The position numbers and the translations under genes were made by a program. 64,000 bases of DNA from Escherichia phage HermannAdler_Bas98: sequence record PQ850608.1; one strand, given 5' to 3'. This document shows positions 1,429-63,734 of this stretch, in pieces (the stretch's first letter is position 1; each line of letters begins with the position of its first letter). Below the pieces are notes generated by a model. It did not search any database. It had not been told where the DNA came from and was given only the letters and a program-made list of their open reading frames with translations.

Positions 1429-1431
1429 CAA

Positions 1432-2208: not shown

Positions 2209-2246
2209 ATAGATTGATTCCCTTTCACTGTCAGGTGGCGTTAACA

Positions 2247-4622: not shown

Positions 4623-4623
4623 T

Positions 4624-5475: not shown

Positions 5476-5482
5476 GGTCATT

Positions 5483-6403
5483 ATGACGATACCAATCAAC
5501 ACATTCCCTCTATCTGGACAAACTCCAGTCTTGCCTGCGGTGTATGCTAATGGCTTGGCAATTGTCTCAGAATTCACTTCTGATAAAAACTTGATTGTTC
5601 CACTGAGCCCGCCGCTTGCATCAGGGTATAACTCAGTAGGTCAATTCTTTATGATTGGAAATGATGGCGATTCGACCAGCAAGCCTAATCTGACATTGTC
5701 TGTACCTAAGATGGACATCACAGACGTTCAAACTGGCTTGACTGCATCAACAATCACCATTGCTTTTGGAGAAGCGGTGATTATAGGAATGGAGTCTGGA
5801 GGGTCCAAGAATGCTGTCGCCGTTAAGGTAGTCAAATCCATCGACAACCAATACACGTTACCAGCTGCGACGGCTTCCGTTCTCGGCGGCGTCAAAATAG
5901 GAAGCGGAATAAGCGTCGCAGGTGACGGTACAATTAGCGTCACCCAATACTCATTGCCGATTGCGTCAGCATCTACTTTAGGCGGCGTAAAGGTCGGTAC
6001 AACTCTATCAATTGATGGTTCCGGTGTGCTTAACGCAGCGGAAAGCACCGTCCAGAATGCCACGAACAGTGTTAGCAATCCTCCAACCACTTTGGTTAAT
6101 CTGGCGACCTTAAACCTTCCTGCAGGAAAGTGGCTTGTGACGGCAAGTCAGTTGACTGTCGCGACAGCAGGAATTCAAGCGAATACCGGAATTACATCCA
6201 AATTGTCAACAAGCGATTCAGATATTACGGATGATGCATTTACGATGTCAGCTGGCATTCGGGCTGCAGGTCGTTTCGGCGGCAATATTCCAACAAAGAT
6301 AATTACTCTTGCCGCTCCTGGCGATGTGTATCTAAACTATCAATGCACAGATGCGTTGACATCTACCGTTTACGGACAGATCACCGCAATCAAGCTGAAC
6401 TAA
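5483..6403 (+). CDS. Structural protein with Gly/Ser/Thr/Val-rich internal repeats
   Basis: Internal repeated segments (SVLGGVKIGSGISV / STLGGVKVGTTLSI); RBS GAGGT before ATG. Confidence 0.45.
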   Translation: MTIPINTFPLSGQTPVLPAVYANGLAIVSEFTSDKNLIVPLSPPLASGYNSVGQFFMIGNDGDSTSKPNLTLSVPKMDITDVQTGLTASTITIAFGEAVIIGMESGGSKNAVAVKVVKSIDNQYTLPAATASVLGGVKIGSGISVAGDGTISVTQYSLPIASASTLGGVKVGTTLSIDGSGVLNAAESTVQNATNSVSNPPTTLVNLATLNLPAGKWLVTASQLTVATAGIQANTGITSKLSTSDSDITDDAFTMSAGIRAAGRFGGNIPTKIITLAAPGDVYLNYQCTDALTSTVYGQITAIKLN

Positions 6404-6579
6404 AGAGGAAGTTATGCAAAAGATTATTCAGTCACGTTATGTTAAAGTGCGAAATATTAATTGCAACTCTTTGCTTTCTTGGAAATGGGCCGTTTACGAC
6501 TCGATGTTAATTGGCGTTTTAGTTGCAGGAGTGCTATTTAATATTCACTGAATTCATCGGCAAAGGATTGCCGCGAGTT

Positions 6580-6870
6580 TTATACGTATAATGACGTATC
6601 ATCCGTATCAAGTAAGTTATTGTTTTCAAAAGAATCTTACGGATGATACGGATGATACGCGTTGCCGCCGTACTATATAGGAATTCAAATAAATTAATTT
6701 AAAATTATATATCTAATTTAATTTTATTTTTTTATAAACTCTTATATATGAAAAGTATCCGTATCATCCGTATCATCCGTAGCACACCAGTGATAGCGCG
6801 GCTTATACACCGATACGGATAAAAATACGCCTCATTTTATCCGTATCATCCGTATCACACTAATAAAGGC
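6580..6870. repeat. Iteron array flanking AT-rich spacer (copy A of a duplicated element)
   Basis: Multiple direct and inverted copies of CCGTATCAT / GGATGATACGGATGATACG around an AT-rich core (AATTAATTTAAAATTATAT...TTTTTTT); homologous to 58900-59170. Confidence 0.7.
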
Positions 6871-6914
6871 GCGGCTATATTGGTTGTTATACATATTCAA
6901 ACCATAATTATTGT

Positions 6915-6943
6915 TTGCCTAAGTTTTTTTCATTAGATATAAT
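6915..6943 (+). promoter_or_regulatory. Sigma70-like promoter TTGCCT-N17-TATAAT upstream of scaffold/capsid genes
   Basis: -35 TTGCCT 6915-6920, 17-nt spacer, -10 TATAAT 6938-6943; RBS GAGGGTGG then ATG 6973. Confidence 0.6.
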
Positions 6944-6972
6944 ACACAATACTTATTTGAGGGTGGATGCGA

Positions 6973-8388
6973 ATGCAAACGGCACGCGAAATTGACAAAA
7001 ATGGATTCTTGACGATTATGGGTTGTCCAATTTCGTCATTTGGCATTTTTGATTATTCTGCTGGTCAAGTCGGTCTTGATGGTGATCCGAATCGCATCGT
7101 AAAAGTCTATCGCCCTGAGTCAGCGGTGAAAGACCCCGAAGCGATAGATTCATTCAAAAATATCCCTTTCATCGACAATCACGAAATGCTTTCTGGATTT
7201 GAAGGTGATGAGGATAACACAGCACCCGAAGAGTATGGAGTTGATGGCGTTCTGACTGGCAATGTTTATTATGACAAGCCATGGATGCGCGGCGACCTTA
7301 AAGTGTTTAGCCGTCGTCTGAAGAAGGCCATTGATTCTGGAAAGGTTGACTTGTCTTTGGGCTATGACTGTGAATTCATCATACAGTCTGGAGAGTTTGA
7401 CGGGCAGCCGTATGAAGTGGTGCAGACAACTCTTCGCGGCAACCACATTGCTCTCGTGGACGTTGGTCGAGTACCAGGTGCACGGGTGCTGGATGGTCGT
7501 TGCTTTGACCATCTTTGTTTGACGACTGTAACACCATCCAACGAGGATTTAGACATGCCAAAACCGTTAAAAGGTAAAGCGCGTGATAATGCTGTTGAAC
7601 AGCTGAAATCACTGATCCCTGCGCTCGAACAATTTCTGAACGAAGAGAGTACTGAAGCTGCTCATCAGGACGAAGTTGAAGTGAAAGCAGAAGAGAAGGA
7701 CTCAACCGAAAATCGTGAAGAAGTAATGGTTGATCCAGAAGTCAAGGCAGAAGCAGAAGAAACCCCAGAAGGTGAAGAGAAGTTTGAAGTTGAAACTGAA
7801 TCTCACGCTGGCGGCGAACTTCCGCAATTGATCAGCCAAATCGAAGCACTTATTGCAAAACTGAAAGGTGGCGCGGTAGGTGATGAAGAAGAAGTTGAAG
7901 CCGAAGTCAAAGACGAAGAAGAAGTTGAAGTCAAGGCTGAAGATGTATCACCTTGCGACAAAGCTGAAGATGTGGTTAGCGGCCTGCAAAACAGCAACGT
8001 AAAGGGGGCTTCGGTCGAAAAAGATGACAAACCGACAAAAGCGGCGAAAGCGTCGCCAGGTCCAGCAAAAGGGGAACACTCAATGGCATCTGATTCAGCA
8101 GTTGCTGCTTTCTACGCTGATTCTGCTCGTAAGAATAGCCTCTACCAGCGCCTGTCTAAAGTTGTTGGTGCCTTTGATCATGCAACTATGGACTCCAAGT
8201 CCGTAGCGAAATATGGCGCTAAAAAGTTAGGCTTGAAGTGCGTTGATGGTGCTGAGTTTGACGTGGTGGATAATTATCTGCGCGGCGTTGAGCACGGTCA
8301 AAAACAGCGTGTAGTCGCAAAACAAAAGGCCGCTGCGGATTCTGCAGCAACTGACGAAGCATTTGAAGCTTGGTTGAAAGGGGAATAA
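6973..8388 (+). CDS. Scaffold-like / prohead-associated protein with acidic Glu/Val/Lys-rich repeat region
   Basis: Globular N-terminal domain followed by low-complexity acidic repeats (EEVEAEVKDEEEVEVKAED); located just upstream of capsid genes. Confidence 0.5.
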   Translation: MQTAREIDKNGFLTIMGCPISSFGIFDYSAGQVGLDGDPNRIVKVYRPESAVKDPEAIDSFKNIPFIDNHEMLSGFEGDEDNTAPEEYGVDGVLTGNVYYDKPWMRGDLKVFSRRLKKAIDSGKVDLSLGYDCEFIIQSGEFDGQPYEVVQTTLRGNHIALVDVGRVPGARVLDGRCFDHLCLTTVTPSNEDLDMPKPLKGKARDNAVEQLKSLIPALEQFLNEESTEAAHQDEVEVKAEEKDSTENREEVMVDPEVKAEAEETPEGEEKFEVETESHAGGELPQLISQIEALIAKLKGGAVGDEEEVEAEVKDEEEVEVKAEDVSPCDKAEDVVSGLQNSNVKGASVEKDDKPTKAAKASPGPAKGEHSMASDSAVAAFYADSARKNSLYQRLSKVVGAFDHATMDSKSVAKYGAKKLGLKCVDGAEFDVVDNYLRGVEHGQKQRVVAKQKAAADSAATDEAFEAWLKGE

Positions 8389-8390
8389 AC

Positions 8391-9008
8391 ATGACTTTCC
8401 AAACTAGTGTAGGCCGTCAATATACAACTGGCTTTCCTGGCGACATCGTTCGCGACGGCCCACAGCGTGGGAAGCCAGGTCGAATCGTTAGCGCCAACGA
8501 TGGTGCAAACGTAAACGCCATCAGCCGTGTGTTCGGTTTTAAAGATGACGTATCTTTAATGGGTACTGGTCAAACCAAAACCTTGGGCGCGCAGGACTTT
8601 GAAGTTGAACTGGGCGGCACCAATTACTATGGCATCCTTGGCAACAGCAAGCGTTACGCTCTGTATGGCAACTCTACTGGTCCTTTGGGCGCCAGCATGG
8701 TTCTGCCTCAATATAGCGAAGGCGAGTTCTATGATATGTGCACGGGCCTCGTAGTTGAAGTATTCAACCCAAGCACCAGTCCGCAGACGCTGAACTACGG
8801 CGACCTGCTCGCTTATGTACCTAAAGGCATTTCCAGCGGTAACAACCCGAACAACTTGCCTATCGGTGCAATTATCGCCTACACTGGCTCACTGCCAACT
8901 GGCATGGTTGCCATTCCAGGCGGTATCGTGATTGACCCGACTGCTATTGCCCTTTCCGGCCCAAGCGTCCAGTCTTCCACTTATACCACTGTACAATTGA
9001 CTCGTTAA
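8391..9008 (+). CDS. Hypothetical head protein (possible decoration or minor capsid protein)
   Basis: ORF between scaffold-like gene and major capsid gene; start at Met8 of track ORF, abutting upstream stop. Confidence 0.45.
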   Translation: MTFQTSVGRQYTTGFPGDIVRDGPQRGKPGRIVSANDGANVNAISRVFGFKDDVSLMGTGQTKTLGAQDFEVELGGTNYYGILGNSKRYALYGNSTGPLGASMVLPQYSEGEFYDMCTGLVVEVFNPSTSPQTLNYGDLLAYVPKGISSGNNPNNLPIGAIIAYTGSLPTGMVAIPGGIVIDPTAIALSGPSVQSSTYTTVQLTR

Positions 9009-9022
9009 TAGGCAGGTGAATA

Positions 9023-10162
9023 ATGACTCGCATTAGCCAAACACACTCTCGCCTCCCAGCGAGCAAGGTGCGCCCTTTTGATATGCAATCCGTCACCGAC
9101 GCGGCTGTTTCCCAGCTTGCTCGTATCGGTATTGTGTTTGATTCCGCGATTGTGCGTGATCAGATTGAGCACTTAAACCGTGCAGGCGCTTTTCGCGTAG
9201 GTGACGCCGCGTTTACTGCGCCGCAGACTACTCCGTCAATCCCGACCCCGTTGCAGTTCCTGCAGCAGTGGTTGCCTGGCTTCGTCAAAATCATGACCGC
9301 TGCTCGTAAAATCGACGAGCTGGTTGGTATTGATACTGTTGGTCAGTGGGAAGATGCAGAAATCGTTCAGGGTATCGTTGAACCAGCTGGCACCGCAGTT
9401 GAATATGGTGATTTCACCTCTATTCCTCTGGCAAGCTGGAACGTAAACTTTGAACGTCGTTCTATCGTTCGTGGCGAAATGGGCATGGCAGTTGGTATGC
9501 TGGAAGAAGGCCGCGCGTCTGCGATGCGTCTGAACTCCGCAGAAACCAAGCGCCAGCAGGCTGCTGTATCTCTGGAAATCATGCGTAACGCAATCGGCTT
9601 CTATGGTTGGTACAACGGGAATAACCGCACGTTCGGATTCCTGAATGATCCAAACCTGCCAGCGGCGATGACTTCCAACACCACTTCCGGCTGGGCTACT
9701 GCGACCTTCCAACAGGTTACTGCAGACATCCGTTTGATGGTTCGTCAAATTCGTGTGAACTCTCAGGACCAGATTGATCCAGAGAAGGTTGACATGACTC
9801 TTGCGCTGCCGACTAACTCTATCGATTGGCTGTCCAACACCACTGACTTCGGTATTTCTGTACGTGACTGGATCACCCAGACTTATCCGAAGATGAAGAT
9901 CAAATCTGCACCGGAACTCAACGGCGCACTTGGCAGTGACCCGACTTTCTTGAACGTGGCATACCTGTACGCTGATCACATTGATTCCTCAATCGATGGC
10001 TCAAGCGATGATGGTTCCGTATTCAGTCAGCTGGTTCAGACCAAGTTCATGACTCTGGGCGTTGAAAAGCGTGCTAAGAGCTATGTCGAAGACTACGCAA
10101 ACGCAACAGCAGGCGTTCTGCTCAAGCGTCCTTTCGCAGTCGTCCGTATGACTGGTATTTAA
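9023..10162 (+). CDS. Major capsid protein (putative)
   Basis: 379 aa ORF in canonical position after scaffold; followed by hairpin at 10188-10217. Confidence 0.6.
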
Positions 10163-10187
10163 TTGCTGTGATTACACAGTAAAACAC

Positions 10188-10217
10188 ATGGGGCGTGGTC
10201 GAAAGGCTTCGCCCCAT
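10188..10217 (+). terminator. Hairpin (ATGGGGCG...CGCCCCAT) downstream of capsid gene
   Basis: 8-bp GC-rich inverted repeat; no clear U-run, so may be attenuator or processing site rather than strong terminator. Confidence 0.4.
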
Positions 10218-10277
10218 ATCAATAGACCTCAAGGGCTGTAGGGGCTTATCTGAGGCTTATATAAATAGGACTACAAA

Positions 10278-10742
10278 ATGTCAAAATACATCGTTTCAAC
10301 TATGTCTATGTCAGTTAACTACACTTTCTATACGGAAGTGAAAGAAAACCCGAATGCAAAAGCTGGTTCAGGCGCTCTTCCAAATATTCGCAAACAGATT
10401 CTAATCAAGGGCGGCGCTGGTCTTACTTCAGCAACTTCCGGCTTTGGTGAAATGGCAAAAGGCGCTGACGGTGCACCTTTGTGGACTCCTGAAGGAATCG
10501 TCACCGTTGTAAGCGATGCAGATTTTGAGCATCTGAAAGATCATCACGTGTTTAAGCAGCATCTTGAAAAAGGTTTGGTGAAAGTCGTAAATCACGACAT
10601 TGTTGGCAATCACAAGGCCGTCGCTAAAGAAGTTCGCGGCATGTCAGACGACCCGTTTGCGCCTATGACGCGCGAAACTGCTGACAAGCGCATCAAGGTC
10701 AAATTGAGCGGCGACCAAGAAGATGATTTATTCCGCGTTTAA
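10278..10742 (+). CDS. Hypothetical structural protein
   Basis: 154-aa ORF in head-tail joining region, same-strand tandem array. Confidence 0.45.
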   Translation: MSKYIVSTMSMSVNYTFYTEVKENPNAKAGSGALPNIRKQILIKGGAGLTSATSGFGEMAKGADGAPLWTPEGIVTVVSDADFEHLKDHHVFKQHLEKGLVKVVNHDIVGNHKAVAKEVRGMSDDPFAPMTRETADKRIKVKLSGDQEDDLFRV

Positions 10743-10756
10743 ATAAGGTGAATGCC

Positions 10757-11212
10757 ATGTCATTAGATTACGAAAAGTTCAGAATTAAATTTCCACAGTT
10801 TGCTGATCAGGTCAAATTCCCTGACGCAACACTTCAAGTATTCTATGACATGGCATGTGAATTTATTGAATCACAAGACAGTCCTTGTCGTGTTTTAAAT
10901 GGCAGTAAATTGGAGCTGGCATTGGAATATATGACGGCTCATCTTTTATGCATAGCCGCAGACCAACAAGTGTCTGTGTCTTCTGGTGACGGAGTTGAAC
11001 AAGGCGGCTTCGTGACTGGCGCAACAATTGGTGACATCACAGTGAACAAAGTCGCGCCGCCTGCGAGTGATGGCTGGGAATACTGGCTATCAAGCACTCC
11101 ATATGGCATGGCGCTGTGGGCGCTTCTTCAAGCACTGGCCGTTGGCGGCTTGTCATTCGGCGGTCTTCCAGAGCGTGAGGGATTTCGTAAAATTGGTGGG
11201 GTGTTCTGGTGA
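10757..11212 (+). CDS. Hypothetical structural protein (head-tail connector region)
   Basis: ATG at Met4 of track ORF behind RBS AAGGTG. Confidence 0.45.
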   Translation: MSLDYEKFRIKFPQFADQVKFPDATLQVFYDMACEFIESQDSPCRVLNGSKLELALEYMTAHLLCIAADQQVSVSSGDGVEQGGFVTGATIGDITVNKVAPPASDGWEYWLSSTPYGMALWALLQALAVGGLSFGGLPEREGFRKIGGVFW

Positions 11213-11595
11213 GGATTCCTGGCGTAAACTTATATCGAGTTGCGACAAAGGTTATCGGTCGCCAACCGATTCAATATTACATGTACAAGGGGCGCACCCT
11301 TGATAAGATGCGCAACTATGCCACTACATATGAAGAACCAATCACCTTACTTGCTTCGGTGCAGGCTGTACTTCGAAACCAATACGTTGAGCTTGGCTTA
11401 GAGCTTCAAAAGAACTATGTCAAAATCTGGGTGGACAAAGACGTTGTTGACCTTGACCGCGACGCTTCCGGCGACTATTTTGTGTTTGGTGGCAAAACGT
11501 ACAAGATGGAAGATGAAACGACATGGTTTGACCAAGATGGTTGGACGTCTTGCCTTGCCGTGGAAGTAAAACAAAGCTTTCCAGTGTCTACTTGA
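11209..11595 (+). CDS. Hypothetical structural protein
   Basis: Apparent GTG start overlapping upstream stop (GTGA); tandem array. Confidence 0.4.
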   Translation: MRIPGVNLYRVATKVIGRQPIQYYMYKGRTLDKMRNYATTYEEPITLLASVQAVLRNQYVELGLELQKNYVKIWVDKDVVDLDRDASGDYFVFGGKTYKMEDETTWFDQDGWTSCLAVEVKQSFPVST

Positions 11596-11602
11596 GGTGT
11601 AT

Positions 11603-12178
11603 ATGACAGATGTCGACCTGATTGACATGCTGGCAACGCGAATTGAAGAAGGTCTGGCGGCGTATAGTCGTGCAGACCTTTCTGCTGTTCCGGTCCAGAA
11701 AAAATACCAACCGACTCAACAGGGCATTCCGACTGGTGATCAGATTTGGTTTAACCTTTTATTCTCAGTCCCATTCGGTTGGTCAATGAGAAAGAATGAA
11801 TTTGTCAATGATGAATCTCAATTCGTTAATGGCAAATTTAAAGATATTGAAGATCAGATATATGCAACACGTTTTCAAATTAGCGGCTTATTTCCAGAAG
11901 TTCCTGGCAATCCAGAAAAGCCTACGGCTAATGACGTTTTGACTTATTTAGCAAGATTCATAACCCACAAGGCTAATTTGAGGGATTGGTTTAAAAGGCA
12001 TCAAGCTTCAGTATATAGAGTCGACATGAACAACAATGAAAAGTTCTATGACGACATGTCTCAGTTTGAATCGTTTCCTTCTTTTGATTTGGTAATCCTT
12101 CACAGAAACGCAATTTCAATTGACACGCCTGCTGTTGCAAGAGCTGTTAATAACGATTTAGGCGATATTCCGGTGTGA
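11603..12178 (+). CDS. Hypothetical structural protein
   Basis: ATG behind RBS GAGGTG; 191 aa. Confidence 0.45.
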   Translation: MTDVDLIDMLATRIEEGLAAYSRADLSAVPVQKKYQPTQQGIPTGDQIWFNLLFSVPFGWSMRKNEFVNDESQFVNGKFKDIEDQIYATRFQISGLFPEVPGNPEKPTANDVLTYLARFITHKANLRDWFKRHQASVYRVDMNNNEKFYDDMSQFESFPSFDLVILHRNAISIDTPAVARAVNNDLGDIPV

Positions 12179-12179
12179 T

Positions 12180-12665
12180 ATGACAAAATCAAAAATGATA
12201 GAAAAACAGATAAAGGCGCTTCAATCGATGAAGGGTCTTACTGTTGAAGCAGGATGGTTTGATTCTACCAGATACCCTTCAGAAACTGGTGGGGAAGGAA
12301 TGTTGGTGTCAGAAGTCGCGCGGCTTAATGAATTTGGTCACATAGCCGTTTTGAACTTTGGGCAAGGGCCAGTCAGGGTAGAAGTGCCACCCAGACCATT
12401 CATGAGATATGCCTATGAATTATTCGTTAGTGAGCGCAGTGAAATAGAGAATAAAATTGCTAAAAAGATTTTTTCCGGTAAAATAGACGCTAGACAGGCA
12501 TTAGGTCAGATTGGGCTTGCGATGGAAGCAAAGATTGTCGAATCAATTAAAAACGGACCTTGGCAAAGAAACGCCAGATATACCGTGCGTGTGAAAGGAT
12601 TCGACAAACCTTTAATTCACAGCGGCCTTATGTGGCAATCTGTCAACAGCCAAGTCATTAAATAA
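12180..12665 (+). CDS. Hypothetical structural protein (tail completion region)
   Basis: ATG abutting upstream stop; 161 aa. Confidence 0.45.
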   Translation: MTKSKMIEKQIKALQSMKGLTVEAGWFDSTRYPSETGGEGMLVSEVARLNEFGHIAVLNFGQGPVRVEVPPRPFMRYAYELFVSERSEIENKIAKKIFSGKIDARQALGQIGLAMEAKIVESIKNGPWQRNARYTVRVKGFDKPLIHSGLMWQSVNSQVIK

Positions 12666-12677
12666 GAGGACACCGAC

Positions 12678-14216
12678 GTGATCAGTCAATCTCGTTATAT
12701 TAAAATTGTATCAGGGGTCGGAGCAGGCGCGGCTGTTGCAGTTCGCAAACTGTCGCTTCGCATCATGACTTCCAATACAGTTCTGCCGCCAGGCATTGTC
12801 GCAGAATTTTCAACTGCTGATGCCGTTGGATCATATTTCGGTTTTTCTTCCGAAGAATACAAGCGTGCAGCACTGTATTTCGGATTCATCAGCAAGCAAA
12901 TCAACTCGCCTGATTCAATCAGCTTTTCTCGCGTTGTATCCACGGCGATTCCTGCAATGGTTATCGGCGACACTGAGCCTAAAACGCTTGCTACTTTCCA
13001 GGCATTCACTGGCGCTATCTTAAGCATCACTTATGACGGCACAGACTACCTGACTGACGCCATCAACCTTTCAGCGGCAACAAGTCTTGCCAACGTAGCG
13101 GAACTTTTGGAAACGGCAATCAACACTAAGTTTGCAGCAGAAGGTGGCACGTCGGTGCCTGCACTTGCTGATGCAGAAGTGTATTGGAATGCCAACACCC
13201 AGCAGTTCACTTTGGAAGCCGCTACGTCGACCGCTGGCGCTGGAAACCTTTCGATTAACGTCACAGGTCAACCGACAGACCCATCTCAGGCGCTTGGTTG
13301 GACGACTACTGGCACCGTTACGGTTGCTGGCCAGGGTGTAGCAAGTCCGGTAGAAGCCATCGCGGCATCTGTGGAGATTTCCAACAACTTTGGCTCATTC
13401 CTTTTCGCTGGAGCAGACCGAACGCTGGAAGAAATCACAGCCGTTGCAGCTTGGACTCACTCGCAGAACAACATGTACATGTATCTGTTCTCGACTGCAT
13501 TCGCCAACATCGGCTCATACTATACCGCGTTGAAAGGTTACTCAGGCGTTGGTATGATGATCCGTGCAACTAACCTCGCGAATGATTACATCGACCAGGC
13601 ACCTGCTGAAATTCTCGCGGCGACAAACTATAACACTGTAAATGCAACTCAAAACTACATGTATTATCAGTTTGAAACGCGAAATGTAACCGTATCGACT
13701 GATTCACGCGCAGATACTGCTGATCAAAACCGTGCAAACTATATCGGTGCGACTCAGCAAGCTGGTCAAACTCTCGCGTTCTTCCAGCGTGGTGTTCTGA
13801 TGGGCGGGTCTACCGCAGCAGTTGATATGAACACTTATGCCAACGAGATGTGGCTTAAATCTGCTATCACTTCTCAGCTGTTCAGCATGTTCTTGAATCT
13901 TGGTCGCGTGCCTGCAAACGAAGAAGGCAAAGCAACTGTACAAGCAATGATTCAAGTTGCTGTTGACAATGCGAAGGTTAACGGCACCATCTCTGTCGGT
14001 AAGGCGCTGACGGAAATCCAGAAACAGTACATCACGCAAACTTCCGGTGATAACACTGCTTGGCGGCAGGTTGAGACTATCGGTTATTGGTTGACTGTCG
14101 ATTTTGACACTGAAACCACTTCCGATAACCGCACCGAATACTATGCAACATACACGCTAATCTACTCTAAAGATGATGCTGTGCGTCGCGTTGAAGGTCG
14201 TGACGTTCTTATTTAA
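12678..14216 (+). CDS. Tail sheath-like protein (putative)
   Basis: 512-aa protein immediately upstream of tube-like gene; RBS AGAGGA before GTG start; resembles DUF3383-type sheath proteins by recollection, not searched. Confidence 0.55.
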   Translation: MISQSRYIKIVSGVGAGAAVAVRKLSLRIMTSNTVLPPGIVAEFSTADAVGSYFGFSSEEYKRAALYFGFISKQINSPDSISFSRVVSTAIPAMVIGDTEPKTLATFQAFTGAILSITYDGTDYLTDAINLSAATSLANVAELLETAINTKFAAEGGTSVPALADAEVYWNANTQQFTLEAATSTAGAGNLSINVTGQPTDPSQALGWTTTGTVTVAGQGVASPVEAIAASVEISNNFGSFLFAGADRTLEEITAVAAWTHSQNNMYMYLFSTAFANIGSYYTALKGYSGVGMMIRATNLANDYIDQAPAEILAATNYNTVNATQNYMYYQFETRNVTVSTDSRADTADQNRANYIGATQQAGQTLAFFQRGVLMGGSTAAVDMNTYANEMWLKSAITSQLFSMFLNLGRVPANEEGKATVQAMIQVAVDNAKVNGTISVGKALTEIQKQYITQTSGDNTAWRQVETIGYWLTVDFDTETTSDNRTEYYATYTLIYSKDDAVRRVEGRDVLI

Positions 14217-14222
14217 ATAATT

Positions 14223-14240
14223 GCCGCCGTAACTGGCGGC
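14223..14240 (+). terminator. Short hairpin between sheath-like and tube-like genes
   Basis: GCCGCCGTAACTGGCGGC inverted repeat; no U-tract; possible attenuator. Confidence 0.35.
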
Positions 14241-14263
14241 CATCTCTCTGAGAGGAATCTGTA

Positions 14264-14731
14264 ATGATTAACGTTTCCGGTTTTGGCGCTTCGATTCGTT
14301 TGGTAGCATCAAACACTTTCCCTAATGGTGTGACCCTTTCTGATTTTGCAGATGATGCTGATCCGATTGACGCGCCGGACCTGCAAATCTCTGAGGCTGC
14401 AATGGGCCTTAACGGTGACTTAGTAGTGTGGAACCGTGCAAACCCGCTTGAAGTAGGTGTGAACATCATCCCTACTTCTGAAAGTGATGTCAACTTGGAC
14501 GTTCTTGCAGCCGCAAACCGCGTAGGCAAGCGCAAGAACTCCGCAAAAGACGTGATCACACTTGTGCTGACTTATCCTTCTGGAATGGTTATCACGCTAA
14601 ACAAAGGCACCTTGACAACTGGTTCAGTAATTCCTGGCATCCAGTCTCAAGGTCGTGTGAAAACACGTCAATATCGCTTCAAGTTTGAGAACGTAGTCAA
14701 AACTGGCGTGAGCAACCAAGAGATTTTATAA
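14264..14731 (+). CDS. Tail tube-like protein (paralog 1)
   Basis: 155 aa; N-terminus MINVSGFGASIRLVA...; clear paralog of 15682-16179; follows sheath-like gene. Confidence 0.55.
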   Translation: MINVSGFGASIRLVASNTFPNGVTLSDFADDADPIDAPDLQISEAAMGLNGDLVVWNRANPLEVGVNIIPTSESDVNLDVLAAANRVGKRKNSAKDVITLVLTYPSGMVITLNKGTLTTGSVIPGIQSQGRVKTRQYRFKFENVVKTGVSNQEIL

Positions 14732-15060
14732 TGTATCAAATACCACTTGACAGCGTACCTAACCAGAATATCAGCTTTAACGTTGACGGTGCATATTGGC
14801 AGTTGCACATTTTTGCCGCTATCGAGCATATGTGTGCCGACGTATATCGCAATGGTGAACTTTTGATTCAAGGGGTGCGCTGTTTTGGTGGTATCCCAAT
14901 GGTGCCTTATAAGTATCTCATGATTGGGTACGGTAATTTCATTTTCGACAGCGTACCTGATTATGAAAGGTTTAACTCTGGCGGCTGTAATCTATATTAC
15001 ATGTCAGAATCTGAGTTGGCTGAATTCCAGGCCACTGCTGAAGCGGAGTTTGCAATTTGA
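14731..15060 (+). CDS. Hypothetical protein
   Basis: 109-aa ORF, start abuts upstream stop. Confidence 0.45.
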   Translation: MYQIPLDSVPNQNISFNVDGAYWQLHIFAAIEHMCADVYRNGELLIQGVRCFGGIPMVPYKYLMIGYGNFIFDSVPDYERFNSGGCNLYYMSESELAEFQATAEAEFAI

Positions 15061-15413
15061 CAACTCTAACCATTGAAGTGAACGAAAATAATGACCTTTT
15101 TCTACCTGATGGAAGAAACTTAAATATTCTTTCAGGAGAAAAAGCGATGGTGCAAGTAATCAAGGCCGCGCATCAGATGCGACTTGGTGAAGACTTGTAC
15201 GATATAGAAAACGGGGTCGATTATTTGGGGACCGTTTTCAAGTCGCCCGTTGACGAAGACGGTGCGCGAAAGTCGATTGCAGATGCTATTCTGAAGAAAG
15301 CAGACGTTGCCGGAATCGACTCATTGACTGTCACCATCCAAAACGGTATCCTTGGATTCACTGCAGAAGTGGTGACTATTTATGGCGAACGTATAAAGGT
15401 GAGTAATCAATAA
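15057..15413 (+). CDS. Hypothetical protein
   Basis: Apparent TTG start overlapping upstream stop; start uncertain (internal ATG about 90 nt downstream possible). Confidence 0.35.
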   Translation: MTTLTIEVNENNDLFLPDGRNLNILSGEKAMVQVIKAAHQMRLGEDLYDIENGVDYLGTVFKSPVDEDGARKSIADAILKKADVAGIDSLTVTIQNGILGFTAEVVTIYGERIKVSNQ

Positions 15414-15679
15414 TGGCACAAGTAATTCATTTTGCAAATGGCGTCATGAAATTTGGCGAAAAATTTGAAGACGCATCAGAGCTGTTTAATAAGAAGGTTG
15501 AGCCTGTTACAGAAATCAAAGAGCAGGTCGAAGAAAAGTCCGTTGAACAAAAACTCGATTTTGATTCCATGAGCGTTTCAGAATTGAAGTCTTATGCCAA
15601 AGAAAATGGCATCGACATCAAGGGTCTTTCTTATAAGGATGAAATTCTTGCTGCAGTTAAATCTGCATCTGCGGAGTAA
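15413..15679 (+). CDS. Hypothetical small acidic protein
   Basis: 88-aa ORF, ATG overlapping upstream stop. Confidence 0.45.
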   Translation: MAQVIHFANGVMKFGEKFEDASELFNKKVEPVTEIKEQVEEKSVEQKLDFDSMSVSELKSYAKENGIDIKGLSYKDEILAAVKSASAE

Positions 15680-15681
15680 AC

Positions 15682-16179
15682 ATGGTCAATATTAGTGGAT
15701 TTGGCACAAGCATTAGAATTGTCGCTCTTCAATCTTTTCCTGTTGGGCTGAATATCAGTTCTTTGTCTGATGACCAGGATTCGCTAATTATTGAGGAAGT
15801 TGAATCAGTAGGTTATCAACTTACTTACGACGGCGGCATTTGCATATACGACAAAGCCGCCGTCGTTCGCGTATCCATTGCGGTCATTCCAAACACTGAA
15901 GATGACATAAATCTTAAGCTTTTATTATCTGCCCGTAAAGGTGGATTCAAGTGGTTGCCAATTCAGGATGTGACATCGATGCTCATTACATATCCTGACG
16001 GTGGAAGGGTGGCATTCTCTAACGGAACGATAATCAGCGGTCCGCTTGGTGACTCCATAGAGCAATCAGGCCGTCGCAAGACAAACCGATACACATTTGT
16101 GTTTGCCAGCTACGGTGGCGCACAGAGCACGTCTCAAATTGCCAAGGGCGTGGTGCAAAGCATATTGGGGTCCATTTAA
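15682..16179 (+). CDS. Tail tube-like protein (paralog 2)
   Basis: 165 aa; N-terminus MVNISGFGTSIRIVA... and shared motifs (ITYPDG, RYTFVF vs ITLNKG, RQYRFKF) with 14264-14731. Confidence 0.55.
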   Translation: MVNISGFGTSIRIVALQSFPVGLNISSLSDDQDSLIIEEVESVGYQLTYDGGICIYDKAAVVRVSIAVIPNTEDDINLKLLLSARKGGFKWLPIQDVTSMLITYPDGGRVAFSNGTIISGPLGDSIEQSGRRKTNRYTFVFASYGGAQSTSQIAKGVVQSILGSI

Positions 16180-57932: not shown

Positions 57933-58381
57933 TGGGTAACAAGCTTATCGCCGCTGGTTGGGCCATACCGAAGTGGGCTCATCGTGCGCACTACTTTGAT
58001 GAAGGAGAAGTGCAAAGCCTTTGCGGTCGCGCAACATACTTTGGTGATGAGCGCGTCAGCGGCGATTACATCGACTCGCTTTTAGGCAAAGGTGATTGCA
58101 AGAAATGTCAGGATATATTAAGAGATATTCTAACGCAAAAAGGACTGCTTGAGCTTGATGAGTCGGAGGAAGTAATAGAGCTTAAGCTTGAAGCCAATCA
58201 CCTTATTAATATGTTCAAGAATTATTACTCAACGAATATGCGCTCAAAGATGCGTGAGGAAGTAATAAAAGAGGTGCTCACTTACAATCCGTTAAGGATG
58301 AATAAAACTAAACTGAAGAAGTTTAATGCAATAGTAAGAAAGGAATTTAGACGGCTTGGAGTGAAGAATTTTATATTTTAA
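57929..58381 (+). CDS. Hypothetical protein
   Basis: 150-aa ORF followed by strong terminator. Confidence 0.45.
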   Translation: MMGNKLIAAGWAIPKWAHRAHYFDEGEVQSLCGRATYFGDERVSGDYIDSLLGKGDCKKCQDILRDILTQKGLLELDESEEVIELKLEANHLINMFKNYYSTNMRSKMREEVIKEVLTYNPLRMNKTKLKKFNAIVRKEFRRLGVKNFIF

Positions 58382-58396
58382 TTATGATTAATGTTA

Positions 58397-58422
58397 AGAG
58401 GGCCGATTGGCCCTTTTTATTT
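58397..58422 (+). terminator. Rho-independent terminator
   Basis: AGAGGGCCGATTGGCCCTTTTTATTTGCCTG: perfect GC stem plus U-run; same downstream TTTTTATTTGCCTG as at 55352. Confidence 0.7.
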
Positions 58423-58899
58423 GCCTGTGTAATGGGAGGCTTTTGTGGTTATTTACGATTCAAGGCTGTAATTTAAGAGAGCGAAAATATTATAATAATT
58501 TATCAAGATTATTGCATATTGTGGCAATCAACGTTTATACGTATTTATGACAGTTTAATCCACTAAATAATACGGATAGAACAGTGAGGAAAATACAGCG
58601 GTGTATTTTAGTGTAAATATTGAATCAAAAATAAATAATTATGGTGCTATTATATACGCAGATTGTTTGTAATTTATAGGATATTTTATCGTGGAGTATT
58701 GGCTAACGGTGCGTTAGCCGTGGGTCTTGGTGCTTGTGGTGTTGATGCTCAGAATTTTAATAATGTTTTTAGTTTTAGTAATCGTAGTCAATGATGATAC
58801 GTATAAGAAAATGAGAGTCACCCCTTCACAGGATATTGTACCGTGGCCCTGTGGTGCGCCGCGCCTGGGATTGCTGGTATACACTGGTGCTATTTTGCC

Positions 58900-59170
58900 G
58901 CGAAGGCAGTCATTCATACGTATCATGACGTATCATTGGGCTATTGATTTATAAGGAAAAATACGCTGATACGGATGATACGGGTGCAAACATAATATAT
59001 ATAGAATTCCAGAAAATTAATTAACTCCATTTTGAATTAATTTAAATTAATTTTTTTCTACATCCTCATACTTATACTAAACTTATATTCATACGTATCA
59101 TCCGTAAGATATAAGTAAAAACAAGGACTTGCGGCAATACGGATGATACGTCATGATACGCTTCGACCAG
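58900..59170. repeat. Iteron array flanking AT-rich spacer (copy B of a duplicated element)
   Basis: ACGTATCATGACGTATCAT, GATACGGATGATACG, CAATACGGATGATACGTCATGATACG around AT-rich core (AATTAATTAACTCCATTTTGAATTAATTTAAATTAATTTTTTT); collinear with 6580-6870. Confidence 0.7.
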
Positions 59171-59364
59171 CCAGCAGCGGCTAAGTCATTGATTTGCATA
59201 GCAAGCGGCGAAAGGGATGGATTTCTTTTATACGTATCAAACAGTACACCACGCACCACGGTCCGCAATCCTATTTGCAATATGATTTGTGTACGTTTAT
59301 AGCCATAATGAACATCAATCTGCACTTGAATATAATGTCCATCCATTGTATAATTCACACTATT

Positions 59365-60575
59365 AATTTGCACTATGGGATTTTGCACTATGAGTCAAGA
59401 TTATGTAGCGATGCCTGAAGACTTTGAAGACCCGCGATTCGCAGAGCACAATCAGGCTTTATTCGATGAGTTCATTGACCTTGTTATTCAGGGTCATGAC
59501 ATGCGCGCAGCTTTTGCACTAGTATTTGGAATGGAAGTTGCAACGGATAACTACACTGGCCAGCGAATCCTTTGCACGCAACGCAATCCATACTACAAGA
59601 TGCGCTTCAAAAAGCGTATGGAAGAGATGCCACTCAAGGATTTGTGGAGCGTAAAAGGTGCAATTCACAATTTGGTCAAGCTTGTGCGTGATCCAGAAGT
59701 CGCGGCGTCAGCCAAGCTTAATGCTATTCGTGAACTGAATATCATCTACGGCATCACGATGATTGATGAAAACGGCAATAGTAAAATGGGCCGTTCTATG
59801 GACGATTTCTACAAGGATTTTGGAGAGGCTGCCAAAGAAGGAGAGCAATTCTCCCGCCACTAGCCAATTTGCACTATAAAACGGCCCTAGAACACATGTT
59901 CTCCACTTCTAGGGCCATCGGTAATACGACGGGGAAGGTCGCACCCATAAACGCGTTAGAAAGTGTATTATTATAAGTCATCTTTTAGTCGCTTTACGTA
60001 ACAATTTACGACCTTCAACCGTCCAATCGAACGACTCCACCAGCAGATTCGCACTATAACCTAAGACGATGCGCCCTTTCTCGTTATCGACCCGCCAACA
60101 AGTCTCGAATAGCATTCGATTTGCACTATTAACTATTGCCGCAACGCGCGTAGGGTAAGCGCAATTTGCACTATGGTCGTAAAGGGATAAGGTGCGACCA
60201 CTTCCGATGGACAATGTAGCGATGAGAATAAGCGTATTCATAAGCCACCAATTTGCACTATGAAAAGCGACCCCGAAGGGCCGCCATTCGATTAGATAAT
60301 CTGGAAGGTGTAGGACTTGTTGCCGAACTCGAAGTTCAAGCGTCCAGCTTCTTTAAGCTTCATGCGGAAGCGAATGTGCTTGCTATCCGGTAATCCCAGC
60401 GCGGCGAAGGCTACGCGGACCGATTTGAACTCGCCTACACCCTCGACCATAACGCCGTTACGGGTGAGACGCTTTTGCGCCACTTCCTTATTATCCCAAC
60501 TTTTTGCAATACCTTCGCTATTCGAACGGCGATGGGAAGGAGTTCCATTTTGCACTACGCAATTTGCACTATCGT
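59365..60575 (+). repeat. Dispersed cluster of 11-bp motif ATTTGCACTAT (at least 8 copies, same orientation)
   Basis: Copies read near 59365, 59381, 59867, 60046 (ATTCGCACTAT variant), 60120, 60166, 60251, 60547 and 60559; several lie inside predicted minus-strand ORFs. Confidence 0.6.
59390..59863 (+). CDS. Hypothetical protein
   Basis: 157 aa from Met6 of track ORF; start codon overlaps an ATTTGCACTAT motif copy. Confidence 0.45.
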   Translation: MSQDYVAMPEDFEDPRFAEHNQALFDEFIDLVIQGHDMRAAFALVFGMEVATDNYTGQRILCTQRNPYYKMRFKKRMEEMPLKDLWSVKGAIHNLVKLVRDPEVAASAKLNAIRELNIIYGITMIDENGNSKMGRSMDDFYKDFGEAAKEGEQFSRH

Positions 60576-60918
60576 TTAAGCCGCTCTTAACGAAGGCTTC
60601 ATACTCTTCATCGCTCATCGCGTCGAGTTCTTCCTGGGTCGGCTCAGCCTTTTTAACGACCGCACGCGCCTTATGCGTTTTTACATCACTGGACACTTCC
60701 TCACGCGGCTTCGCGTCGGGAATGGGCGATTCGTTGGACGGCTCATCGAGCGCGTTTAAGGACTCGATTAACGCGATTACGCGAGTCTCGGCGGTCCGGC
60801 GGTCCGCAAATTTCTTAATCGGCTTCGAACCGGAATTTGCATTATAAAATGCAACGAGGTCGGCGGTCTTAGTTGCGATAACGTCGCCGCTAGTAGAAAA
60901 GCGATTTAAGCTAACCAT
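60292..60918 (-). CDS. Hypothetical protein
   Basis: 208-aa ORF in CpG-rich terminal segment; contains two motif copies on the opposite strand. Confidence 0.4.
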   Translation of the reverse strand: MVSLNRFSTSGDVIATKTADLVAFYNANSGSKPIKKFADRRTAETRVIALIESLNALDEPSNESPIPDAKPREEVSSDVKTHKARAVVKKAEPTQEELDAMSDEEYEAFVKSGLNDSANCVVQNGTPSHRRSNSEGIAKSWDNKEVAQKRLTRNGVMVEGVGEFKSVRVAFAALGLPDSKHIRFRMKLKEAGRLNFEFGNKSYTFQII

Positions 60919-60998
60919 AATAAACTCCTATTTGTTAGGGCGCTAGGCGCGAAAGAATTTTATTAAAGCGCCGCGCACGACGCTCTAAAAATCCTCTC

Positions 60999-61313
60999 TT
61001 ACTCTTCGTCGTCTTCGATTAATTCGAGGGCGAAGGCGTAAGCTTTGCTATCGTAATTAACTAAAACGGCGAGTTCGAACTCGTTAATAAACGCCGTTTT
61101 ACCGCATAAATTTAATTCCGCATCGACTTCGAAGAATCCGTTTTCGTCGCGCTCTAAGCGAGAAGCAGCGAGTTGCTCGATTACCGTCGCGTCGTTAATT
61201 TCTTCGCCTAAGCGAACGCCGGAGAATTTCGCGAGAATTTCGCCGTAAGTAAGCGTAACGCCCTGGACTTCGGCGGCGGCGTTTTCGAGGGTAAAGCGGG
61301 TAACGATAGCCAT
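60999..61313 (-). CDS. Small acidic hypothetical protein
   Basis: 104 aa, acidic with C-terminal EDDEE; good coding character. Confidence 0.45.
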   Translation of the reverse strand: MAIVTRFTLENAAAEVQGVTLTYGEILAKFSGVRLGEEINDATVIEQLAASRLERDENGFFEVDAELNLCGKTAFINEFELAVLVNYDSKAYAFALELIEDDEE

Positions 61314-61537
61314 AATAAACTCCTAGTTGGGAGAGGCGTTAACGACCTATTCGTTAACTCATCCCGTCCCGATATGAGTACATTATAATATAGTGTAGAA
61401 AAAAGTAAAGCACTTTTTCGATAAAAATGCGATAAATTATTTTATCTTTTTTCTTTACTTCTTCGTACACTCGCGTATACTTGTTTATATCGAGACGGGC
61501 GATGGCCCTTTCTTCTACTAGCATCGGGAGCTTTATT

Positions 61538-61840
61538 ATGACTACTTTAATCTCTTCCATCCTTACTTACGACGAAGACCGCTTAACCGTTCGCTCTCTT
61601 ATCGCCGCCGTTAACGCGGAACTAGAATCTAGCGCCATTAAGGTCCGCGCGGTCGCCTTCATCGGCCTTTCCTTCGACGATATGAAGTATGCCGAACGTA
61701 GCGCCATCCGCTTCGCGAAGACCGACGACGAAGCCGTTACCCTTATCGAGACGGTTACGCCGCGCGGCGAAGCGTTAATTATCGTCGAGTATATCGACGT
61801 AGAAGGCGATAAATCTTATAAACATTTTATCGCAGAATAA
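61538..61840 (+). CDS. Small acidic hypothetical protein
   Basis: About 100 aa from Met20 of track ORF; preceded by shared promoter-like element. Confidence 0.4.
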   Translation: MTTLISSILTYDEDRLTVRSLIAAVNAELESSAIKVRAVAFIGLSFDDMKYAERSAIRFAKTDDEAVTLIETVTPRGEALIIVEYIDVEGDKSYKHFIAE

Positions 61841-61852
61841 CGAAAAAAGTGC

Positions 61853-61881
61853 TTTACTTCTTCGTACACTAAGACTATAAT
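61853..61881 (+). promoter_or_regulatory. Sigma70-like promoter TTTACT-N17-TATAAT containing shared element CTTTACTTCTTCGTACACT
   Basis: -35 TTTACT 61853-61858, -10 TATAAT 61876-61881; the 19-nt element also occurs at 61452-61470 upstream of 61538 gene. Confidence 0.5.
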
Positions 61882-61948
61882 GTTTTATATCGAGAGGGGA
61901 TGAGGTAGCGAATAGGTCACTACCCTCCCGACTAACTAGGAGAATATT

Positions 61949-62239
61949 ATGATTACTTTAGCCGCTATCCGTTCCGCTCGCGTCGAAACTTCCGAAAACT
62001 CTAACGTATTTGGCGAAAAACTTAAAAACGTTTATCTCTTTAACGTAGATGCGACTATCGAGGAGCTTCACAGTCCTATCGATTTTAGCGAATTTACGGA
62101 ACTCGAAGAGGAAGATATTTCTACCTTCCGCGTTACTATCGAAGGCAAGGTTTATTTTGCTACGGAGTTCGGCGGCGAATATCTCGCGGTATCCGAAGGC
62201 GAAGGCCGTTACTCTTTCTTTAAAATCGTTTCCTTATAA
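61949..62239 (+). CDS. Small acidic hypothetical protein
   Basis: 96 aa, Glu-rich; RBS AGGAG before ATG; followed by terminator. Confidence 0.45.
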   Translation: MITLAAIRSARVETSENSNVFGEKLKNVYLFNVDATIEELHSPIDFSEFTELEEEDISTFRVTIEGKVYFATEFGGEYLAVSEGEGRYSFFKIVSL

Positions 62240-62257
62240 TACCCTTCCGTTACTAAT

Positions 62258-62286
62258 AGGCCGCGCTTAGTCGCGGCTTTTCTTCG
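62258..62286 (+). terminator. Rho-independent terminator
   Basis: GGCCGCGCTTAGTCGCGGC hairpin then TTTTCTT. Confidence 0.6.
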
Positions 62287-62937
62287 TCCCTATCTCGATG
62301 CGCTCCTACGCGAAAACTCCTTTATCCTTCCCTTCGTCGTCGCATAATCTTCTTCGAGATGCGTCTTAGTTCGCATAACAGGTATTACGTTAAATGGAGA
62401 ACATCGCGTAAGTCCTTGTTTTATATAGACACCTATATCGGACCGTTAGGGCGGGTCGCGTAAGTCGTTGTTTTATAAAGGCACAAAACTTTCCCTTCGT
62501 TCCGAACTAAAACGAGAAATATGCCGACCCTTCGCCCGAAAATAGTACGTATGCGAAATTACATTCATCTCGAATAATCCCTCCCGATATTATCCTACAC
62601 GCAATCATTCGCTTTCGAATCATTATGCTTCATATTATTATGCGTCGAATCATTCGCTTTCGAATTGTAACGCTGGAAACTGTAACGTCGATTGATTATT
62701 GCGTTCGTGTGGTTTTTATGGCATGGGTCTTTTGGTGCGTTTTGCTACTTGATGGAATTTGCGGTACACTAATCAAAATACGACACATTTGGTCCACTAA
62801 CTTTTCAAAGAAAAAGTCCTAGACAGTACCGTACTATTTTGTACCCACAGGAAATTTGCAGTACACTCCTGAGCGGCAGGCAAAATAAAGGGCCGCACTA
62901 AGCGACCCACGATTCACGGTTAAATCAGCAACACCCA

Positions 62938-63318
62938 CTATTCGCTCTTATGGGCATCACCAAAGCCATCCGCAATCTGGCTGATCAATGATTCAATGGA
63001 CACAGTTTTACCAATTGATCGAGCGGTAATAGCAAGCATATTATCAATCAAACCATGATTGGATGCATATGGTCCAGGTTTTGAATCATCTTCAGGACAA
63101 CCAAAAAGCTGGTCGCGCAAACTTTCGAGAGAACGCTCAATATTTTCCAGCTTCTCTTCTAAATCAGATTGGCGACGTAAAACCCATGTTAAGTCTCGGT
63201 TGCCGACTTCCAATCCATCGAAATCGCAAGCTGGAACGTCAATTTTAATACTTGGATTAAAAGCAGTACCGCTGCCTTTAGTATATTTGTGGTGATTGCG
63301 ATCAATAGTTTGTGACAT
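62938..63318 (-). CDS. Hypothetical protein
   Basis: 126 aa from Met23 of track ORF, behind RBS AAAGGT; C-terminal coiled-coil-like region. Confidence 0.45.
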   Translation of the reverse strand: MSQTIDRNHHKYTKGSGTAFNPSIKIDVPACDFDGLEVGNRDLTWVLRRQSDLEEKLENIERSLESLRDQLFGCPEDDSKPGPYASNHGLIDNMLAITARSIGKTVSIESLISQIADGFGDAHKSE

Positions 63319-63360
63319 ATCATTACCTTTAATATTTGGGTGATTAACAATAACTATAAT

Positions 63361-63380
63361 AAAGCCGCATAGCGCGGCAT
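63361..63380 (-). terminator. Hairpin terminator (minus strand)
   Basis: GCCGCATAGCGCGGC hairpin with T-rich run on minus strand. Confidence 0.45.
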
Positions 63381-63497
63381 TCAAATCGGTTTGTTAATTG
63401 TAACGATTGAATTTACTTATCCAACCAATCAATAAGCGCAATCATAGCAACAACAAATACTGCGCTGATTGCTAATATGATCAAGAACATCACAAAA

Positions 63498-63734
63498 TCA
63501 ACATTCATCAATCGATACCAATTGTGCAGGGTCGCCGGATACAGTTGCGCCGATGATACCCATATGAGAGAAAAATTCTGAATAAACTTCTTTCCAGTAC
63601 TTGCGCGCAGCTTTCTGGGCTTGCCCTTTGCGCTTGTAGCTTTTACCTTGGAAGATGAAGCGGTCGTTTGCTGCGTTATATTCCACCACACCTTCCAGCC
63701 ATTGTAAGAAAGCTACTGATTCATTTTGATTCAT
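63498..63734 (-). CDS. Hypothetical small protein
   Basis: 78-aa ORF. Confidence 0.4.
   Translation of the reverse strand: MNQNESVAFLQWLEGVVEYNAANDRFIFQGKSYKRKGQAQKAARKYWKEVYSEFFSHMGIIGATVSGDPAQLVSIDEC

Follow-up and report, generated by a model that had tools for sequence, protein, structure and literature searches.

In the 64,000-nucleotide (nt) stretch of Escherichia phage HermannAdler_Bas98 analyzed here (PQ850608.1; hereafter the window), the coding sequence is interrupted by a gene-free gap of 698 nt (62240–62937), which extends from the stop codon of a plus-strand gene for 96 amino acids (aa; 62239) to that of a minus-strand gene for 126 aa (62938). An earlier note on this DNA had recognized the gene-free stretch, and this is borne out, though the extent given there (62280–62930) was slightly small. 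The phage is a Wifcevirus, i.e., a myophage of E. coli and Shigella from the family Lindbergviridae, with WFH, Mansfield and ECML-117 among its kin, and the region 61800–63400 is matched by 28 GenBank records at 89–95% identity. Because an intrinsic terminator lies on each flank of the gap, about 600 nt (62284–62884) are enclosed by two convergent terminators (Table 1); the plus-strand one shows 97.5% conservation and is annotated in WFH, WFC and Mansfield. It is in this enclosed segment, hereafter the spacer, that the direct terminal repeat (DTR) of the phage has its right boundary; the spacer also contains three pairs of direct repeats, and forms the subject of this analysis.

The DTR of wifceviruses has already been published: it was given as ~3.7 kb for WFC and WFH (Korf et al. 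2019, PMC6563267) and, using PhageTerm, as 3,673 bp for Mansfield (PMC6753283) and 3,533 bp for Ro157lw (PMC6454146). We located its ends by comparing both termini of the records that hold two copies of the repeat, together with the repeat_region feature of the Mansfield record. The repeat stops at a common point in WFH, Mansfield, Ro157lw and SP13, namely ...GGGTCTTT|T(T)GGTGCG, also written as ...GGCATGGGTCTTT|TGGTGCG, which is 62732|62733 in the window (±1, on account of a T run); the read-start statistics of PhageTerm stand behind two of these four records (Mansfield and Ro157lw). At the opposite side, five linear records (WFH, WFC, Mansfield, Ro157lw and SP13) begin exactly with the left end, ATTTTGAATTAATTT, which lies at 59029. 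The left end and the right junction together define the DTR of the window, which is comparable in length to those in the deposited records (3,701 bp in WFH and 3,899 bp in SP13). The DNA abutting the right junction is 97.1% conserved on its left and 95.7% on its right, with a DNA-fold z-score of +1.59. Proximity to a physical genome end was one of the identities that the earlier note had proposed for the stretch, and, as judged by homology, this would be correct: the right DTR boundary lies inside it, at the same homologous base in four records, and the stretch appears to carry one physical end of the virion DNA.

Our analysis of 62280–62930 (651 nt) recovered three direct pairs with at least 13/14 identity, where 300 shuffles that preserve the dinucleotides averaged 0.04 and 0/300 reached three pairs. 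All three of the near-identical paired elements reported by the earlier note are present, and none of them, in the full form given there, has a copy elsewhere in the 64-kb window. Pair A, TCGCGTAAGTC(C/G)TTGTTTTATA (62404–62425 and 62456–62477; 0.00 expected), extends to 29 nt with 90% identity at a spacing of 52 nt. Its 16-nt core, CGYAAGTCNTTGTTTT, has three matches in the 64-kb window versus 0.20 expected, the third being an inverted copy close to the left DTR end; the core is the only element common to both DTR boundary regions and its polarity is identical when read inward from either tip of the chromosome. Repeat A is conserved in 18 relatives and 8 further assemblies, with variation in the core restricted to positions 3 (Y) and 9 (N), while the left inverted core is kept as CGCAAGTCTTTGTTTT in 17/17 aligned relatives and 8 further assemblies, with a T at the variable ninth position in all of them. 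The reverse complement of the core, AAACAAGGACTTA, fits 8/9 specified positions of WATCAANNNNTTR, the consensus of the integration host factor (IHF); the same score is attained by all three copies, in the general form AAACAA(G/C/A)GACTT(A/G), and each is preceded by an AT-rich tract, TATAAA or TAAAA. By our own comparison with this consensus the A core resembles an IHF site and might be regarded as a putative IHF-like one.

Pair B is an exact 18-mer, AATCATTCGCTTTCGAAT (62603–62620 and 62648–62665; 0.11 expected), belonging to a 34-nt unit (27/34 identical; spacing 45 nt) in which the 5-mers CGAAT and ATTCG alternate; its duplication stands as described by the earlier note, but the 19-mer given there is one base too long since copy 1 begins with C and not G. 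Pair C, ATTTGC(G/A)GTACACT, has its copies 97 nt apart, and the likeness once drawn between it and the ATTTGCACTAT motif (59366 and 59381, at the start of terS) is unsupported, there being a shared hexamer ATTTGC alone. The right DTR end falls between pairs B and C, 67 nt past the second B copy. A lack of conservation of the repeats in relatives had been named among the findings that would refute the observation; instead, the A and C pairs are conserved together with their spacings, both A copies and both C copies being found at unchanged distances in every genome compared. In Bas100, a viable isolate, exactly one 45-nt B unit (62603–62647) is missing, which constitutes a deletion within an otherwise near-invariant spacer length.

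Table 1. Features of the spacer, the DTR and their surroundings (window coordinates)
Feature	Position	Strand	Remarks
DTR	59029..62732	.	3,704 bp; single collapsed copy in this assembly
Third A core, inverted	59118..59133	-	CGCAAGTCCTTGTTTT; 90-105 nt inside left DTR end
terS (small terminase subunit)	59390..59863	+	360 nt inside left DTR end
TG/CA-poor, CG/TA-rich island	60650..62700	.	right 2 kb of DTR and first ~420 nt of spacer
Early-type promoters	61382-61409 (-), 61454-61481 (+), 61853-61881 (+)		-35 TTTACT
Intrinsic terminator	62258..62279	+	8-pair stem, then T run; closes rightward DTR genes (100-aa and 96-aa open reading frames)
Non-coding spacer, conserved	62284..62884	.	601 nt; convergent terminators on either side
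Repeat A copy 1	62404..62432	+	core CGTAAGTCCTTGTTTT, 62407-62422
Repeat A copy 2	62456..62484	+	core CGTAAGTCGTTGTTTT, 62459-62474; 52 nt from copy 1
Repeat B copy 1	62587..62620	+	34-nt unit including exact 18-mer 62603-62620
Repeat B copy 2	62632..62665	+	45-nt spacing to copy 1; 67 nt between its end and DTR end
Right-cut context	62702..62755	+	G/T-rich, unstructured, near-invariant; cut 62732|62733
Repeat C copy 1	62757..62770	+	24 nt after right DTR end (outside DTR)
Repeat C copy 2	62854..62867	+	97 nt from copy 1
Intrinsic terminator	62890..62908	-	ends leftward operon whose last gene is the 126-aa one; annotated in WFH and WFC

The spacer was found in 28/28 Wifcevirus records, at 88–98% identity and near-constant length, and in no other among 50,697 phage records; it is 94–98% identical to its counterparts in WFC, WFH, Mansfield and Ro157lw. 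It is also present, at 95–97% identity and with 1–3 gapped positions, in eight more independent assemblies (Logan, ENA and NCBI), where pairs A and C, the motif at the cut site and the spacings are all retained. Its nucleotide diversity (pi per 100 nt, 0.026–0.083) is similar to that of terS (0.02–0.07) and three to five times below that of the adjacent genes; the values for the genes compared are 0.15–0.19 (96-aa), 0.16–0.21 (104-aa) and 0.08–0.14 (126-aa). Within the spacer, the most conserved block is the repeat A zone, with 9% variable columns, and the least conserved is 62501–62625, with 29%. No distant relatives of the spacer were recovered from the 50,697 phage records, from IMG/VR searched via TerS, or from E. 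coli genomes, and a pattern search of IMG/VR with the A core found the pair to be confined to wifcevirus contigs.

This conservation is not that of a protein-coding region. We translated the six small open reading frames (ORFs) of the spacer in 19 genomes: the frame at 62625–62822 (65 aa), which the earlier note had already suspected of being spurious and which probably is, is disrupted by a stop in kaset, by a frameshift in SP13 and by one of each in RCIP0319, and has no start in Bas100; likewise, the small ORF annotated in Mansfield (62507–62623, minus strand) is interrupted by stops in kaset and RCIP0363, and its start is lacking in FEC19 and Ro157lw. Among the other frames nearly all substitutions change the amino acid, with no coding pattern, and searches of Pfam, PHROG and NCBIfam yielded no matches for any of the small ORFs of the spacer. 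A protein-coding role for the spacer was hence rejected, every small ORF being broken or unconvincing among the relatives.

Taken together, the end position shared between records, the conservation, the non-coding status, the repeats and the context provided by TerS and the terminators suggest that the spacer is a cis-acting end-formation region, at which the terminase cuts the right end of the genome, a role for which we would put the probability at roughly 0.5. Briefly, we envisage the following course of events. On concatemers, the terminase (TerS and TerL) would cut the left end at 59028|59029 and, one genome length later, make a second, sequence-specific cut at 62732|62733 in the invariant G/T-rich segment. 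The B repeats, 67–146 nt inside this cut, and the C repeats, 25–135 nt outside it, might furnish the protein-binding context for the right cut, whereas the A-core sites might mark both DTR ends, having the same polarity relative to the nearest end, and be bound by a bending or bridging protein, either one of the phage or IHF. We infer that the repeats bind proteins and direct the cutting or the duplication of the DTR; in this regard, both spacer A cores retain a TG step within a region otherwise purged of TG/CA (see below), which we count in favor of such a role. The convergent terminators would serve to exclude transcription and RNA polymerase from the spacer. In the resulting virion DNA, the spacer would occur twice: intact where the left copy of the DTR meets the unique DNA, and cut off at 62732 at the right tip. 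The TerS of the window is recognizable by its phmmer match to a PDB entry labeled 'Small terminase' (7UXE, E 7e-34), with which the Mansfield annotation agrees; 7UXE is the TerS of the Pbunavirus E217 (PMC9611059).

Several observations weigh against this proposal. The end in this particular isolate was placed by homology only, and the repeat in the WFC record (MK373777.1) is 3,784 bp, terminating 83 nt further to the right (...CAAAGAAA|AAGTCC; window 62813), a difference that points either to another cut site or to imprecision in the deposited record. There is no motif common to both cut sites (local alignment scores of 23 and 27 versus 22.2 ± 2.7 in shuffles). The A cores are not listed by a scan with the strict IHF consensus. 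Two B copies are not required, because Bas100 is viable without one of the units. Further, no appreciable binding of DNA was seen in vitro for the solved homologue, the TerS of E217 (PMC9611059), and conservation alone cannot tell packaging from other cis-acting roles.

As to the two boundaries themselves, the left cut is flanked by AATTAAT-type palindromic repeats (AAATTAATTAACTCC|ATTTTGAATTAATTTAAATTAATT, 59013–59052); the pattern TGGGTCTTNNGGTGC was considered as a cut-site motif and discarded as it is not repeated, and the DNA folds of the repeat zones and the cut site are unremarkable. The left boundary lies within an AT-rich zone (58790–59240, GC 0.33–0.34) that is dense in ATACGGATGATACG, CGTATCATGACGTATCAT and ATTCATACGTATCAT repeats, in both orientations and on both sides of the end, and contains one strict IHF consensus site (59182–59194, minus strand); going by their sequence, these repeats and this site are candidate packaging-initiation sites. 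The DNA directly to the left of the DTR (58445–58966) is unconserved among wifceviruses, with Bas99 as the only match, and homology restarts ~60 nt before the left DTR end.

Among well-studied systems, the concatemer junctions of T7 and T3 and the cos site of lambda (cosQ–cosN–cosB, with an IHF site) are cis-acting non-coding sites of sequence-specific terminase cuts, flanked by short repeats or by sites to which TerS and a bending protein of the host bind. In T7 the repeats measure 160 nt, with heptamer arrays on their flanks, and lambda generates cohesive ends from a single site; in the wifceviruses, in contrast, the cuts are 3.7 kb apart and have unrelated contexts. The pbunaviruses, which are the closest members of the family, are reported to package by the headful mechanism or to have disputed ends (PMC12390725), and both the search of phage records and the family-level comparison found them to be without this spacer. 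In that comparison, the Pbunavirus PS44 and the Serratia phage SMP were set aside since they share a 208-aa gene and not the architecture.

The closest analogue of the spacer is found in T5, a siphovirus of the Demerecviridae as opposed to a myovirus of the Lindbergviridae: its Repeat Region 3, where the injection stop signal (iss) resides, likewise consists of gene-free DNA straddling the inner boundary of a long DTR. In the T5 record (AY543070), plus-strand genes are followed by a terminator (9275–9296), a gene-free iss region (9140–10149) and the end of the terminal repeat (10219), beyond which there is further gene-free DNA and then a minus-strand gene ending at 10936; thus, both regions lie downstream of the terminator closing the plus-strand genes and upstream of a minus-strand gene end. 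Both also contain several direct repeats and palindromes, are conserved genus-wide beside variable coding DNA just to the left, and have one element with an inverted partner elsewhere in the repeat (for T5, bioRxiv 10.1101/866236). This raises the alternative that the spacer acts in DNA ejection, instead of or besides packaging, as an injection-stop or pause site at the inner end of a first-entering DTR or, if the right end enters first, as the leading tip, with the consequence that the early genes of the DTR are expressed before the rest of the genome arrives. The presence of three sigma-70-type promoters in the DTR and the termination of a TG/CA-poor island at its boundary, as might befit the first-exposed DNA, would also accord with such entry control. 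Yet the T5 DNA transferred in the first step shows no TG/CA depletion; the ordered DnaA-box pairs that are a T5-type feature have no counterpart here, no DnaA box (TTWTNCACA, ≤1 mismatch) being present in 62240–62940; homologues of A1, A2 and dmp of T5 were not found in the window (tblastn E > 0.3 for A1/A2); and the gene-free region is ~700 nt long compared with 1,662 nt in T5. Homology to iss itself was tried and rejected: one 11-mer and some 9-mers are suggestive, but such sharing is at chance level (p 0.4–0.8). Moreover, two-step transfer has never been reported for wifceviruses. Therefore, while the spacer may work like the T5 region, it would do so as an analogue and not a homologue, and we regard entry control as unlikely overall.

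Unlikely, too, is the idea that the spacer is a recombination linker with little sequence-specific function, its similarity being kept up by exchange between co-infecting wifceviruses and its repeat pairs being remnants of local duplications beside a hot spot of gene gain and loss. The most variable genes of the region do lie just to its left: conservation is only 75% for the 96-aa gene, the ECML-117 group carries an additional 69-aa gene, RCIP0363, AV128 and ECO71P1 carry an additional 50-aa one, and the 104-aa gene is missing in about 1/4 of the relatives; there is also a duplicated 48-nt promoter block nearby (61453–61499 / 61852–61899), and Bas100 has lost precisely one B unit. However, ~600 nt kept nearly free of indels across 36 genomes exceeds the needs of a linker, and against it also stand the retention of both A and both C copies at constant spacing in every genome, the conserved inverted A core at the other DTR end and the mapping of a physical end within the spacer. 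A still weaker case can be made for a regulatory or small-RNA locus, in which B, with tandem minus-strand promoters (TCGAAA-N18-GATAAT or AATAAT), would yield a short transcript or peptide, or A and C would be operators for a phage regulator. Four minus-strand promoter-like matches of 9/12 do occur at 62724–62589, two of them within the B units, and small ORFs have been annotated here in Mansfield and kaset; but the promoter-like matches of the stretch as a whole are weak (9/12) and not clearly in excess of shuffles (8 versus 4.1 ± 2.1), the annotated frames have stops or lack starts in several relatives, and the C motif is found nowhere else in the window. The small RNA locus entertained in the earlier note is, moreover, disfavored by the convergent terminators and by the want of any match within the gene-free stretch in an Rfam search of 58300–63500, and the secondary-structure prediction recommended there as a check returned energies equal to those of shuffles on both strands (z +0.15 and +0.69). 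A 28-nt inverted repeat, I1 (62350–62377 / 62550–62577), was dropped as a candidate since its pairs are lost in most relatives without compensatory changes. All in all, a regulatory function, including the regulatory hub of the earlier note, seems rather improbable. Least likely of these is a replication origin at which a phage initiator would use the repeat pairs as iterons: the lack of coding, the conservation and the repeats would fit, as would the spacing of A (52 nt), which approximates five helical turns, but in addition to being devoid of DnaA boxes the spacer is not AT-rich (GC 0.40–0.46) and has just two copies of each element, the GC skew tracks gene orientation only, and the AT-rich, repeat-dense region at the left DTR end would be a better candidate. 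No strict IHF consensus sites were detected in the gene-free stretch.

Beyond its proposed role in end formation, the spacer intersects with a compositional anomaly, namely an island depleted in TG and CA that covers the right part of the DTR. Here TG+CA amount to 6–16 per 300 nt as against 42.6 ± 7.9 in the window, with symmetrised rho values of 0.38 for CA/TG, 2.08 for CG and 1.13 for TA; among the trinucleotides, CAG/CTG are down 11-fold and there is a more than 2-fold excess of TCG/CGA, CTA/TAG and TAA/TTA. The bias pervades genes on both strands and the intergenic DNA, and the encoded proteins are nearly without C, W, Q, H and M. Since it is also displayed by accessory genes of relatives and by alleles that are 25% diverged, the bias appears to be actively maintained. 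In finer windows, the island begins inside a family-core gene; it fades within the spacer and has vanished directly beyond the DTR (20.7 versus 43.9 per 300 nt), and is the single one of its kind in the 64 kb. We found nothing relevant in the literature on TG/CA depletion in phage early regions. The three promoters of the DTR are of one type, TTTACT-N16/17-TATAAT or TATACT, in which TTTACT is a TG/CA-free substitute for TTGACA at -35; two of them lie in the duplicated 48-nt block that precedes the 100-aa and 96-aa genes, and together the three drive a leftward operon and the two rightward genes that end at the spacer-side terminator. One could speculate that spacer and island form a single system for staged genome delivery by a myovirus, in the manner of T5 or T7, wherein the terminal ~2 kb of the DTR, being first exposed, would be purged of TG/CA so as to be invisible to host DNA-binding or DNA-cutting factors, and the spacer, by means of its elements A, B and C, would control this first step as its tip or stop signal; we consider this scenario a long shot.

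Some further observations concern the surroundings of the spacer and the T5 counterpart. Beside the minus-strand terminator, a heptamer CGACCCA/ACCCACG (62903–62915) is present in ~6 tandem copies in Mansfield (L001, ~3860–3900) and in 2 tandem copies in Bas99 and SP13. Upstream of the 126-aa gene, the gap at 63312–63401 (minus strand) gives a weak Rfam match to the fstAT antitoxin small RNA (26 bits versus a gathering score of 72, E 0.17), which is probably due to chance. The hot spot of gene content corresponds to 61949–62283 (4451–4660 and 3845–3997 in the relatives L006 and L014, respectively), with the 104-aa gene (60999–61313) in its region; the 69-aa gene of the ECML-117 group is labeled 'transcriptional regulator' and has no significant match in Pfam or NCBIfam. 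Ahead of terS, 59326–59392 includes a strong sigma-70-type promoter, TTGAAT-17-TATAAT, preceded by TG as read, and followed by two copies of TTTGCACTATG(G/A)G, the second of which contains the terS start codon; this duplicated element is the above-mentioned ATTTGCACTAT motif. In T5 (1–16000), CpG numbers 20–38 per 500 nt in the terminal repeat, ~2x that of the following unique DNA (6–17), and drops near the end of the repeat. The repeated T5 units at 9550–9720 (AAATGAGAATCATTATCATT) are candidate Fur boxes by comparison with the Fur consensus.

The DTR as such was known, whereas the anatomy of the repeats, the conservation of the spacer and the inverted A core are new details: the papers on WFC/WFH, Mansfield and Ro157lw give the length of the repeat only and leave the spacer, the repeat pairs, their conservation and the inverted A core undescribed (PMC6563267, PMC6753283, PMC6454146). 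For annotation, this means that some records call small ORFs here that are not genes, and that wifcevirus genomes deposited in circular form are best opened at the position equivalent to 59029 of the window. The TG/CA-free island, for its part, is a compositional extreme meriting its own study. More generally, how long DTRs arise has been stated to be unknown (PMC6454146), and the spacer offers a tractable handle on how the concatemers of phages with such repeats are cut and how several kb are duplicated: an invariant target of ~600 nt, free of genes, that combines three discrete repeat pairs with a mapped cut site and, in Bas100, the natural deletion of one unit, in phages that are small, have a solved TerS homologue and are now grown on engineered E. 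coli K-12 (BASEL collection, PMC11990801).

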